This document shows positions 56,199 through 59,230 of a DNA stretch of 64,000 bases, in pieces. The position numbers and the translations under genes are program-made. Location: sequence record MT764208.1; one strand, given 5' to 3'. The number at the start of each line of letters is the position of its first letter. Positions within the stretch are counted from its first letter, which is position 1. This stretch comes from Escherichia phage JEP8. A model generated the notes under the pieces. It was not told the origin of the DNA and made no database searches. It saw nothing but the letters and a program-made list of their open reading frames with translations.

Positions 56199-56234
56199 AT
56201 TCACTATTCCTTCTTTTGATTAATTTACTAGACT

Positions 56235-56262
56235 ATTATACAGATTTAAATTTACTTGTCAA
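56235..56262 (-). promoter_or_regulatory. sigma70-consensus promoter (TTGACA-N16-TATAAT) upstream of gene 32
   Basis: minus-strand; perfect hexamers; approximate. Confidence 0.55.
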
Positions 56263-56948: not shown

Positions 56949-57218
56949 TTAAATATCGAGAGTGTTGGTCGGTTCGTCGATCACTCCCTTCCTGAGCGTT
57001 CTATTTACTATACATTCTTGTGTGATCTTGTCAATAATGGACACCGGAATATACTTCTGATAGTGACCATATTCTATAGAGTTTTCCTCTACAAACTGAG
57101 TTGTCGCTTCAAGATAAGTCAATCCCTCTTCAACAACCAGTTTTTCGATTGCAAGACCGTTTGCTGTTTTATTCGCGGCTTTTACCGCATGTTCATTAAG
57201 CATTGAACACCCGATCAT
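56949..57218 (-). CDS. 33: late transcription accessory protein (gp33-like)
   Basis: 89 aa; …EKLVVEEGLTYLEATTQFVEENSIE… resembles the T4 gp33 core; synteny after 59. Confidence 0.7.
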   Translation of the reverse strand: MIGCSMLNEHAVKAANKTANGLAIEKLVVEEGLTYLEATTQFVEENSIEYGHYQKYIPVSIIDKITQECIVNRTLRKGVIDEPTNTLDI

Positions 57219-57471
57219 AGAGTTCTACTGCCTCATCGCGTTCTGCTTCGAAGGTTTCGCGCTGTTGCTGGTGATACAGTTTAAACAGAATGCCCCACAT
57301 TTTACCATCTACGCCTAATTCTTCTTTAGCACGCTGCTTGATCTCTTTGATCTTATCGCCATATGCTTCTTGAATGGTTTTCTGATCGCTGGCTTCTTTA
57401 ATCAGTTGTGCCAGGGTATTTCCGTGCACTGCTTCGTCAAATACTACTTTTTCTTTTTTCTGTTCAGCCAT
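57196..57471 (-). CDS. dsbA: DsbA-like double-stranded DNA-binding protein
   Basis: 91 aa basic/acidic helical protein in the T4 dsbA position (between 33 and rnh); weak direct sequence evidence. Confidence 0.55.
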   Translation of the reverse strand: MAEQKKEKVVFDEAVHGNTLAQLIKEASDQKTIQEAYGDKIKEIKQRAKEELGVDGKMWGILFKLYHQQQRETFEAERDEAVELYDRVFNA

Positions 57472-57475
57472 AATA

Positions 57476-58072
57476 TTAACCCTCTTTCGTCATTAATTGA
57501 AAACCACGTTCAGCTTTTGAAATTTCGCTAGGACTTAAATCGTCACCAACATATTCTAGCATCATTTCTCGGATAATGTCAAGTGCTTTTTCATCACCTG
57601 ATTTTAACTCGAACTCAAGTTCATAGTGAGCATCTCCCATTACTTCGCCGACTTTGCAATAATAGAAAGTGTCTTTGCACATTTCCACTATAGCACCCTC
57701 AAGGTCAAGTGTCAATGACTTGCGGTATGTCATTACTTGCAACAAAGGAACTATAAGGTCGGAGTTTACGCCTAGACTATCAACATAGTGATAGAAATCA
57801 TCCATTGTTGAAAAAGTAATTTCTTCTCGGTTGAATAGTCCAGATTCACCATCACCTATTTTGACCATGATCAATGATCTATTAACGTCAAGTCGAGCAT
57901 AAATTCCTTTTCGACGCAGTGCATGATCTTCGGTATCATAATAAAATTCGTGTTTTAGAGTGTTAGCATGATCTACGATATTGTACCCGTCATACATTGC
58001 TACCCACAAATCACGGATTGTTTCTACACCATCCTGTGAATGAGCATAGTATTTTAATTCAAGTTCTTTCAT
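57476..58072 (-). CDS. CYTH-like (triphosphate tunnel metalloenzyme) domain protein
   Basis: 198 aa; N-terminal ExExK signature (MKELELKYY…), …LRRKGIYARLD…, and acidic EhEhE strand (HYELEFELK). Confidence 0.55.
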   Translation of the reverse strand: MKELELKYYAHSQDGVETIRDLWVAMYDGYNIVDHANTLKHEFYYDTEDHALRRKGIYARLDVNRSLIMVKIGDGESGLFNREEITFSTMDDFYHYVDSLGVNSDLIVPLLQVMTYRKSLTLDLEGAIVEMCKDTFYYCKVGEVMGDAHYELEFELKSGDEKALDIIREMMLEYVGDDLSPSEISKAERGFQLMTKEG

Positions 58073-58082
58073 GTGTCAACCC

Positions 58083-59030
58083 TTAGAACTCACCAATTTT
58101 CTGCAACATTTTAACTAACGCATTTGTTACAAAATAGTTATAAATTTTACCGCGTGGTGCTGGTTTAGATTTTTCCCATGCTAACAAAATTTCATATTCG
58201 ATGTTATCGGGAATAAATTCAAAATCAATAAGTTCGCGGTTTTCGTCAAAGCGTCGTGCTTCTTCCTCTGTCATCAAAGACTTTGGATCTTCGGCATCGA
58301 AAATTTGCTCCAACCATTTGGTTGCAATTGGTTTAGCTCGTTCCCCTTCCAGTCGTGAGATAATGAAATCACTACGGCACTTGATAGAAGCTACACCGTC
58401 TTTTGCGTCACCCTTAACACATTTTACCATAAGGTCTTTGTAAGGGCTACCATATTTGCATTTCTTCCACGCTTTCTGTACTGGCGCCCACTGTTTCACG
58501 TTTTTGTATTTGTGCAACTGTGTGTAGTCACCATCGCCGGAGTTGATCAGCACCTGGCGACCTTCTACAGAAAACTTTTTAGTTAACACAGCGATTATAT
58601 CATCTGCTTCAACTTTGTCAACCTTAATAACGTGATAAGGCATGTTCTCTTTAAACTCTTCGGTGATCTTATTGATTGCAGCAAAGATCATCTCCCAATC
58701 ACGCGGATCTGCGTCTCGCTTTTCCTTACGGTTGCGTTTATAGTAAGGGGCGATATCACGTCGCCAGTAACCTTTGCTTGAATCAAAAGCAAGCACCGTA
58801 ATAGGGTATTGCTCTTTGAATTTTGTCATATTATAACGCATGGTGTCAAGAATAAGATGACGGATCATGCCTTCATTAATGGGATCTTCCGGTTTAAAGG
58901 TATGCGAGATAGTAGCAATCATAAGCTGCGACATATCAATCAAATGCACACCTTCCGGCAGTTTATCTTCTGGATCATCGAAGAAATCATTAAGTGTAGC
59001 GGTAGTTTTTGTAAACGGGTTATACGTCAT
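58083..59030 (-). CDS. rnh: RNase H / 5'-3' flap exonuclease (FEN-1 family)
   Basis: 315 aa; colinear with T4 RNase H (…DFIISRLEGERAKP…PRGKIYNYFV…). Confidence 0.9.
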   Translation of the reverse strand: MTYNPFTKTTATLNDFFDDPEDKLPEGVHLIDMSQLMIATISHTFKPEDPINEGMIRHLILDTMRYNMTKFKEQYPITVLAFDSSKGYWRRDIAPYYKRNRKEKRDADPRDWEMIFAAINKITEEFKENMPYHVIKVDKVEADDIIAVLTKKFSVEGRQVLINSGDGDYTQLHKYKNVKQWAPVQKAWKKCKYGSPYKDLMVKCVKGDAKDGVASIKCRSDFIISRLEGERAKPIATKWLEQIFDAEDPKSLMTEEEARRFDENRELIDFEFIPDNIEYEILLAWEKSKPAPRGKIYNYFVTNALVKMLQKIGEF

Positions 59031-59032
59031 AA

Positions 59033-59230
59033 TTAAGTTCTCTCCACTCTCACAACAACATATTCGCCAAACGAGTTAGATACTTCACGATCATACCCGT
59101 ATTTCTCCATAACTCGCAGAATTGCATTGTTTAATTCGGCGCGGAAATAATTGTAATCCTTATCAGGGATTCTGTCAACTACCCATTTTGCACCGTCTGA
59201 CAAATCAACTTTAACCATAATATATATCAT
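59033..59230 (-). CDS. hypothetical protein (65 aa)
   Basis: small ORF between rnh and the gene 34 promoter region. Confidence 0.35.
   Translation of the reverse strand: MIYIMVKVDLSDGAKWVVDRIPDKDYNYFRAELNNAILRVMEKYGYDREVSNSFGEYVVVRVERT

Follow-up and report, generated by a model that had tools for sequence, protein, structure and literature searches.

The active site of triphosphate tunnel metalloenzymes (TTMs) of the CYTH family has been described in Escherichia coli YgiF, where E160 holds metal 1, while metal 2, the one that activates the water nucleophile, is held by E4, E6, and E162 (PMC4641920, Martinez et al. 2015). The invariant catalytic arginine of this enzyme is R56, equivalent to R52 of AtTTM3, and K69 aids substrate binding; in AtTTM3, an alanine mutant of the second arginine of the RxR pair stays active but a mutant of the first does not (PMC4641920). 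Published motifs also separate the subfamilies. Class IV cyclases are marked by HFxxxxExExK, by Val, Cys, or Leu (small residues) in place of the first arginine of RxR, and by ExA for ExE (PMC8233210, Vogt et al. 2021). Thiamine triphosphatases (ThTPases) have an aromatic residue (W/Y) two residues ahead of RxR, where other hydrolases have a small one (PMC8233210), and at this position Trp53 of ThTPase stacks the thiazole ring beside the plug helix (PMC4641920). Among viruses, CYTH triphosphatases are scattered among jumbo phages (Iyer et al. 2021), and our literature searches on CYTH and TTM proteins in phages, on Krischvirus gene function, and on anti-phage systems found no experimental study of any phage CYTH protein. 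Here we describe a gene of this family in a 64,000-nucleotide stretch of Escherichia phage JEP8 (MT764208.1), a coliphage of the RB49-like genus Krischvirus; this stretch is referred to below as the window, where it lies between rnh and dsbA and encodes 198 amino acids. Judging from its motifs and predicted structure, the product is probably a free-standing, catalytically competent CYTH-family TTM that is nearest to the tunnel domain of YgiF and that would hydrolyze a triphosphate (XPPP) rather than act as a cyclase.

Fold, family, and earlier annotation

In the open reading frame (ORF) listing of the window, the gene is ATG-initiated and has the coordinates that a first-pass annotation of this DNA had given for a 198-amino-acid ORF between dsbA and rnh:

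57476-58072 (-): CYTH/triphosphate tunnel metalloenzyme gene, identified from the ORF, Pfam PF01928, PHROG 14893, an AlphaFold2 (AF2) model, and the fold match to YgiF; ortholog of RB49ORF244c

The same annotation had read a CYTH-fold TTM from the letters of the sequence and had named structure prediction as the way to look for an eight-stranded tunnel. Both profile and structure bear this out. Specifically, the protein matches the Pfam CYTH family PF01928 at 30.5 bits against a gathering cutoff of 23.2 (E = 3.9e-7), with residues 1 to 190 covering positions 1 to 178 of the 179 in the profile. The AF2 model, built from 24 homologs (predicted local distance difference test, 91.7; predicted template modeling score, 0.85), has eight long strands and a C-terminal helix, and together with the fold search it supports a closed beta tunnel of eight strands, plugged by a helix at the C terminus. 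When the model was compared with the PDB using Foldseek, the top match was the inorganic triphosphatase YgiF of E. coli (E = 5.7e-13; TMq, 0.79), followed by plant TTM3, Bacillus CYTH proteins, Sulfolobus SaTTM, thiamine triphosphatase, and class IV cyclases, with capping RNA triphosphatases matching more weakly. Based on the Pfam match, the AF2 model, and the Foldseek ranking, assignment to the CYTH/TTM family is solid, and the catalytic residues, described below, are conserved in divergent homologs.

The phage protein differs from each of the enzymes that it resembles. The N-terminal CYTH/TTM domain of YgiF (PDB 5a60/5a61) is the nearest relative by fold, while pairwise sequence similarity is weak (E = 0.006). 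YgiF also carries a C-terminal CHAD (polyphosphate-binding) domain, whereas the phage protein is a single domain: CYTH spans residues 1 to 190, and the Pfam search found no CHAD domain at E ≤ 1 in the 198 residues. NeuTTM, CthTTM, SaTTM, BH2851, and AtTTM3 are, like the phage protein, single-domain enzymes of similar size with the ExExK and ExE signatures of two-metal hydrolases, but they have a small residue plus RxR in place of the phage YxRxD, are 13 to 19% identical to it, and are in no case phage-encoded. Other virus-encoded proteins with the TTM fold include Aeh1ORF004c and those of Aeromonas phage 65.2, uncultured Caudovirales, and the capping triphosphatases of nucleocytoplasmic large DNA viruses. 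Their likeness to the phage protein is at the level of fold only (8 to 16% identity, other genomic positions), and those of the large DNA viruses are domains of capping enzymes, unlike the phage protein.

The capping enzymes raise the possibility of an RNA 5'-triphosphatase, which would take the gamma-phosphate off pppRNA, either host or phage transcripts or pppAC-primed Okazaki primers, and so promote 5'-end-dependent decay or primer processing beside RNase H. Cet1 and viral capping RNA triphosphatases have the TTM fold and are found among the fold matches, and the gene follows rnh directly, with what looks like translational coupling between the two, in a replication and transcription cluster. 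Yet the Cet1-type family PF02940 was not matched at E ≤ 1 in a Pfam search of the protein, and capping enzymes are not its closest fold neighbors; this missing match and lower fold rank argue against a Cet1-type RNA triphosphatase. Moreover, CYTH proteins of the small-molecule branch typically have a closed tunnel and a plug helix, and T4 and most T4-like phages have the same rnh and replication genes without this protein. We therefore consider an RNA 5'-triphosphatase quite unlikely.

The gene itself is not a discovery; it is already catalogued and has been in databases since 2003 to 2006. The GenBank record of phage RB49 (AY343333) describes RB49ORF244c as "similar to P45267, P30871, HI1598, ygiF," and the same ORF was listed as a CYTH domain match with a value of 0.0026 (Nolan et al. 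2006, PMC1524935). Product names diverge, with "inorganic triphosphatase" in the Krischvirus records Makalu_001 and Makalu_002 and "adenylate cyclase" in the phage records PHB13, AV108, and KMB43. The protein matches PHROG 14893 (E = 3.5e-129), a family that PHROG lists as of unknown function, and an NCBIfam scan returned no match. What our analysis adds is the call of hydrolase rather than cyclase from sequence motifs, the Y-x-R-x-D variant of the active site, and the hypervariable cassette described below. As it stands little changes, the main consequence being that the annotation is corrected from adenylate cyclase to hydrolase-type TTM. The finding would matter more if the enzyme had a specific organic triphosphate substrate.

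Active-site residues and predicted reaction

The residues on which the predicted reaction depends fall in four stretches of the protein:

58052-58066 (-): strand beta1 with ExExK (E3, E5, and K7; ELELK, residues 3 to 7), from the translation, invariant in all homologs; E3 and E5 align with YgiF E4 and E6, ligands of metal site 2
57887-57901 (-): Y58-A-R60-L-D62 on beta3, the phage family's version of (small/W)-x-R-x-R, from MAFFT, hidden Markov model (HMM), and profile-versus-PDB alignments
57602-57622 (-): strand beta8, E151-L-E153-F-E155-L-K157 (ELEFELK, residues 151 to 157); E153 corresponds to YgiF E160 (metal 1) and E155 to YgiF E162 (metal 2)
57491-57520 (-): C-terminal plug helix, SKAERGFQLM (S185 to M194), modeled by AF2 as a helix from 186 to 194; neither K186 nor R189 varies, even among cellular homologs

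Translation places the ELELK and ELEFELK motifs of the first-pass annotation exactly here. The Arg-rich central segment that it had also noted is present but modest (R53, R54, and K55, then R60 and R65). Across homologs, there is no or almost no variation at E3, E5, K7, K40, Y44, D46, R60, K71, R82, E84, R117, E130, D134, E151, E153, E155, K186, and R189, and homologs with as little as 30% identity still keep all four acidic ligands of the metals and the basic residues of the tunnel unchanged. Among nine alleles with pairwise identities of 27 to 87%, conservation over the whole protein is 0.77 at tunnel-facing strand positions versus 0.52 to 0.55 at outward-facing and loop positions; within the variable core of the gene alone (see below), the corresponding values for tunnel-facing versus outward-facing and loop positions are 0.71 and 0.42 to 0.44. 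The ratio of nonsynonymous to synonymous substitution (dN/dS) is 0.14 to 0.31, which indicates purifying selection.

The identity of the catalytic arginine depends on the alignment register around beta3. Three profile-based alignments (MAFFT with the nearest cellular homologs, an HMM of those homologs, and a profile of the MAFFT alignment compared with PDB chains, YgiF and SaTTM among them) place R60 in the catalytic arginine column (YgiF R56), D62 at the second arginine (YgiF R58), and Y58 at the small or aromatic position (YgiF Gly54). In these alignments, the next hairpin has lost two residues at its tip and is that much shorter in the phage protein than in YgiF. In the AF2 model, the residues that point outward from the two strands are hydrophobic (I57, A59, and L61; I68, V70, and I72), and K71 pairs opposite Y58. 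The parity of the hairpin, as read from this strand pattern, supports placing R60 on R56. We regard this register as the more parsimonious one because it keeps an otherwise invariant residue and because R60 is 100% conserved. The residue aligned with the second arginine is Asp in eight of nine divergent phage alleles and Asn in the other. Since the AtTTM3 mutant of the second arginine remains active, the substitution should be compatible with catalysis, but it would be expected to alter contacts with the substrate.

Measured against the published subfamily motifs, these features lead us to favor a two-metal hydrolase. The alternative carried by several database records, and by the first-pass suggestion that the enzyme might make a cyclic nucleotide, is a class IV (CyaB-like) cyclase producing cAMP or another cyclic nucleoside monophosphate to manipulate host signaling. 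Such a function would fit the "adenylate cyclase" product name, and CyaB and YpAC-IV do have their fold and Pfam family in common with the phage protein. However, all three class IV signatures of PMC8233210 are absent. The HFxxxxExExK motif is missing, with just two residues ahead of ExExK (MKELELK); the gatekeeper arginine is kept as R60 rather than replaced by a small residue, and in the alternative register discussed below the position would be occupied by Tyr, again not a small residue; and ExE is intact (E153-F-E155) rather than ExA. In addition, "adenylate cyclase" is a well-known legacy misannotation of CYTH proteins (PMC3440374, PMC8233210). On the strength of the three missing signatures, we consider a cyclase extremely unlikely.

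By homology with YgiF and AtTTM3, the triphosphate substrate would be centered in the eight-stranded tunnel with one Mg2+ or Mn2+ held by E153, while a second metal, bound by E3, E5, and E155, would activate the water that attacks the terminal phosphate. In this scheme, R60 would stabilize the beta-gamma bridging oxygen, and the phosphates would be bound by K7, K71, R82, R117, K186, and R189. The predicted reaction is thus hydrolysis of XPPP to XPP plus inorganic phosphate rather than cyclization. The substrate may be inorganic triphosphate (PPPi) or short polyphosphate, or it may be a small organic triphosphate. We entertain the organic option because the conserved Tyr58/Asp62 pair would lie on the plug-helix side of the tunnel, the side used by thiamine triphosphatase to hold its organic moiety. 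The comparison with the mammalian enzyme is partial: ThTPase has W-x-R-x-R, with both arginines binding phosphates, and of these elements Y58-x-R60-x-D62 retains the aromatic residue and the first arginine and has lost the second (identity, ~14%).

Several observations weigh against a competent triphosphate hydrolase as described here. First, a pairwise phmmer alignment with YgiF (E = 0.006) shifts the register by two, placing Y58 on the catalytic R56, and, if right, this register would leave the enzyme without an "invariant" catalytic residue. Second, with Asp at the second arginine of RxR, phosphate binding would be unlike that of every characterized TTM hydrolase. Third, in the two most distant phage homologs (P0044 and P0046), the position of Y58 is occupied by Val or Ile; the tyrosine at the ThTPase stacking position is therefore a weak hint of an organic substrate. 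Fourth, most of the triphosphatase activity toward PPPi in E. coli comes from pyrophosphatase, and PPPi is undetectable in cells (PMC3440374), so a plain inorganic triphosphatase would be of little obvious benefit to a phage. Finally, in phage vB_EcoM_G2494 (MK327935.1, hit H51), the CYTH gene matches in two pieces that are annotated as two hypothetical proteins, an apparent frameshift or sequencing error that may mean that the gene is dispensable in the laboratory or lost in culture. A cluster of 130-amino-acid fragments of the CYTH protein (P0034) also exists.

A further alternative is a noncatalytic or decaying gene, whose product would serve only as a "sponge" that binds triphosphates or would be a functionless remnant undergoing drift. 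One frameshifted copy among ~58 genomes and the loss of one arginine of the RxR pair are what such a reading has in its favor. It is opposed by the metal ligands and tunnel residues, which are invariant across alleles whose synonymous divergence is saturated, by the low dN/dS, and by the persistence of the gene at this position even in lineages with just 31% identity. Accordingly, we judge decay or loss of catalysis to be very unlikely, and a hydrolase of the two-metal type remains the reading that we prefer.

Allele exchange and distribution of the gene

Most of the coding sequence lies within a region that is far more variable than the DNA on either side, a feature that is previously unreported:

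57626-58044 (-): hypervariable intragenic cassette, codons ~10 to 149, from sliding identity and nucleotide alignment

In phage Skers and the metagenomic contigs L007 and L009, the DNA of rnh, dsbA, 33, and 59 is 95 to 100% identical to the window, with a synonymous divergence (dS) of 0.04 to 0.19. In the cassette, the same phages have 45 to 65% nucleotide identity and 42 to 43% amino acid identity, and the proportion of synonymous sites that differ (pS) is ~0.8, that is, synonymous sites are saturated. The borders of the cassette are sharp and fall exactly at the codons for beta1 ExExK and beta8 ELEFELK. An allele of the Phi1 type is intermediate, with a dS of 0.50 in the core versus 0.04 to 0.15 in the flanks. 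In all, there are at least four to five allele classes, mutually ~56 to 60% identical, and the C-terminal 50 residues are identical in every one of them. With synonymous sites in the core saturated while the flanks are nearly identical, the pattern is one of allele replacement, through recombination with diverged lineages as the source. The same contrast led us to reject rapid in situ protein evolution of the variable core. We also rejected, as a main explanation, conservation of the 3' end of the gene as a DNA element such as a dsbA promoter; pS there (0.09 to 0.13) equals that of the flanking genes, and the conserved end is just backbone, lying beyond the exchanged cassette.

On a longer timescale the same gene again stands apart from its neighbors. 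In a distant relative, contig L006, the CYTH protein is 45 to 48% identical, while rnh and dsbA are 81 to 83% identical, making the CYTH gene the one element with fast turnover in a replication and late-transcription cluster that is otherwise conserved. Such turnover is compatible with a role in host interaction or counter-defense, and equally with the mosaicism that is usual among accessory genes of T4-like phages. Another small mosaic patch lies beside the CYTH gene in the 3' part of rnh (~58180-58201, minus strand), where a 60-nucleotide window is 67 to 70% identical to RB49, Phi1, and Skers and nearly identical to L007 and L009.

It is in this context that a role in counter-defense or host takeover should be weighed. 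The enzyme might destroy a triphosphate nucleotide that the host makes upon infection, with a surface that changes so as to escape a host sensor or inhibitor. Candidate substrates include a toxic nucleotide analog, an alarmone, a linear pppN-oligonucleotide, thiamine or adenosine-thiamine triphosphate, and the PPPi released by defensive deoxynucleoside triphosphate triphosphohydrolases; the last of these draws on the known chemistry of Dgt/SAMHD1-type enzymes. Because it concerns the biological role, this explanation is compatible with hydrolase chemistry. Consistent with it, divergent cassettes (42% amino acid identity) have been swapped into genomes with 95 to 100% identical flanks while the lining of the tunnel was kept, the divergence of L006 runs in the same direction, Y58 and D62 form an aromatic and acidic pair where ThTPase binds its organic group, and the gene is lineage-specific and noncore. 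Against it, our literature search found nothing tying TTMs to anti-phage systems, no partner gene or target was identified, dN/dS is below 1, and mosaic exchange of alleles is common among T4-like accessory genes and is no proof of an arms race. The PADLOC defense models did not match the CYTH protein either, a result that carries little weight, as it is expected of an anti-defense gene. On balance, a counter-defense role seems unlikely. A more specific version, in which a hydrolase of organic triphosphates serves counter-defense or host reprogramming, the Tyr58/Asp62 pocket binds, for example, an immune signal derived from a nucleotide, a toxic nucleotide, or the triphosphate of thiamine or of adenosine-thiamine, and cassette exchange reflects evasion of host recognition or inhibition, is slightly less likely again. 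If this version is true, no phage TTM before this one would have had a defined part in the conflict between phage and host. Furthermore, this pattern of cassette exchange often goes with host-interaction genes, which makes the CYTH protein a reasonable, low-cost candidate for anti-defense screens in Krischvirus.

The distribution of the gene is narrow. RB49, Phi1, and JSE are among the 58 Krischvirus genomes to which the surrounding 2.4 kb are 95 to 98% identical, and the gene was found in all 58 of the Krischvirus records with matching flanking DNA. The CYTH protein is carried by ~58 of the 1,740 phage records with an rnh homolog, all of them Krischvirus. The first-pass annotation had given dsbA and rnh as adjacent in T4, and indeed only 8 to 10 nucleotides separate the two genes in T4, Aeromonas phage AhFM11, and Klebsiella phage Roth21. 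Given that rnh and dsbA abut in these phages and that so few rnh-bearing records carry the CYTH protein, the gene is an insertion particular to this lineage, within a core cluster that is conserved.

The slot between rnh and dsbA is old. On metagenomic T4-like contigs with homologs at 45%, 37%, and 31% identity, the CYTH gene is still directly upstream of dsbA-33, and on the sole one of the three that reaches far enough upstream, L006, it is also downstream of rnh. Searching 1.84 billion representative proteins gave just 19 matches at E ≤ 1e-3, one of them spurious (repeat protein P0051), so no close cellular donor can be named. A scan of IMG/VR with short peptide patterns found at least two loci with the CYTH protein.

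Neighboring genes and expression signals

The CYTH gene is tightly packed and co-oriented with rnh, dsbA, 33, 59, and 32. The genes on either side of it and the signals discussed in this section are as follows:

58083-59030 (-): rnh (T4 RNase H/flap endonuclease), upstream neighbor, 315 amino acids; PF09293 (E = 3e-37), PF02739 (E = 6e-18)
57196-57471 (-): dsbA (double-stranded-DNA-binding protein of late transcription), downstream neighbor, 91 amino acids; PF11126 (E = 5e-22)
58080-58084 (-): Shine-Dalgarno-like AAGGG, seen on inspection of the sequence; it lies 7 nucleotides upstream of the CYTH ATG and shares bases with the stop codon of rnh (58083-58085)
58594-58621 (-): perfect sigma-70 consensus, TTGACA-16-TATAAT with extended TG, inside rnh (consensus scan only)

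The start of dsbA is 4 nucleotides beyond the CYTH stop codon, and gp33, gp59, and gp32 follow downstream according to Pfam and PHROGs. Because AAGGG overlaps the rnh stop codon, the arrangement suggests translational coupling of the CYTH gene to rnh. As a candidate early promoter, the perfect consensus inside rnh could drive CYTH-dsbA-33-59. Three additional sites on the minus strand, at the start of or inside the CYTH gene (58051-58079, 57687-57715, and 57553-57582), match the sigma-70 consensus at 11 of 12 positions. Overall, the scan returned 23 promoter-like sites in the region, compared to 10.7 ± 3.1 expected. It recovered the annotated early promoter of RB49 gene 32 (56235-56262), and no other site from the scan is annotated in RB49. 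A T4-type late promoter (TATAAATA) was found nowhere near the CYTH gene on its strand. Since there are predicted sigma-70 sites in rnh and in the CYTH gene, and since the same scan recovers a known early promoter, prereplicative expression of the CYTH gene is likely. As an accessory gene of the Krischvirus lineage, it would probably be expressed before or during replication together with the leftward cluster from rnh to gene 32.

The first-pass annotation had also proposed that the enzyme might act with the RNA repair enzymes encoded by pseT and rnlA. This partnership finds no support in either position or phyletic pattern: the two genes are 13 to 15 kb away in RB49, and T4 has both of them without the CYTH gene. 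On these grounds of distance and distribution, we rejected a functional link.

Three smaller observations concern the surroundings of the gene and of one of its homologs. Between gene 34 and rnh lies a 65-amino-acid ORF (59033-59230, minus strand; phrog_3594, RB49ORF246c) whose PHROG function is unassigned, and in T4, AhFM11, and Roth21 no ORF is annotated in this slot. With this ORF and the CYTH gene, rnh has Krischvirus-specific small genes on either side. Farther along the cluster, a homing-endonuclease gene is found between 59 and 32 in Skers (L002, 5802-6398) and T4 (L003, 4628-5260), and the window (~56205-56258), RB49, and Phi1 are without it. Finally, on an archaeal metagenome contig (L013, 4797-6606), the CYTH homolog P0045 comes directly after a gene of the PRK family (phosphoribulokinase/uridine kinase), with RNA ligase and NUDIX genes close by, and these separate kinase and CYTH genes echo the fused kinase-TTM proteins of plant TTM1/2 (PMC8233210).

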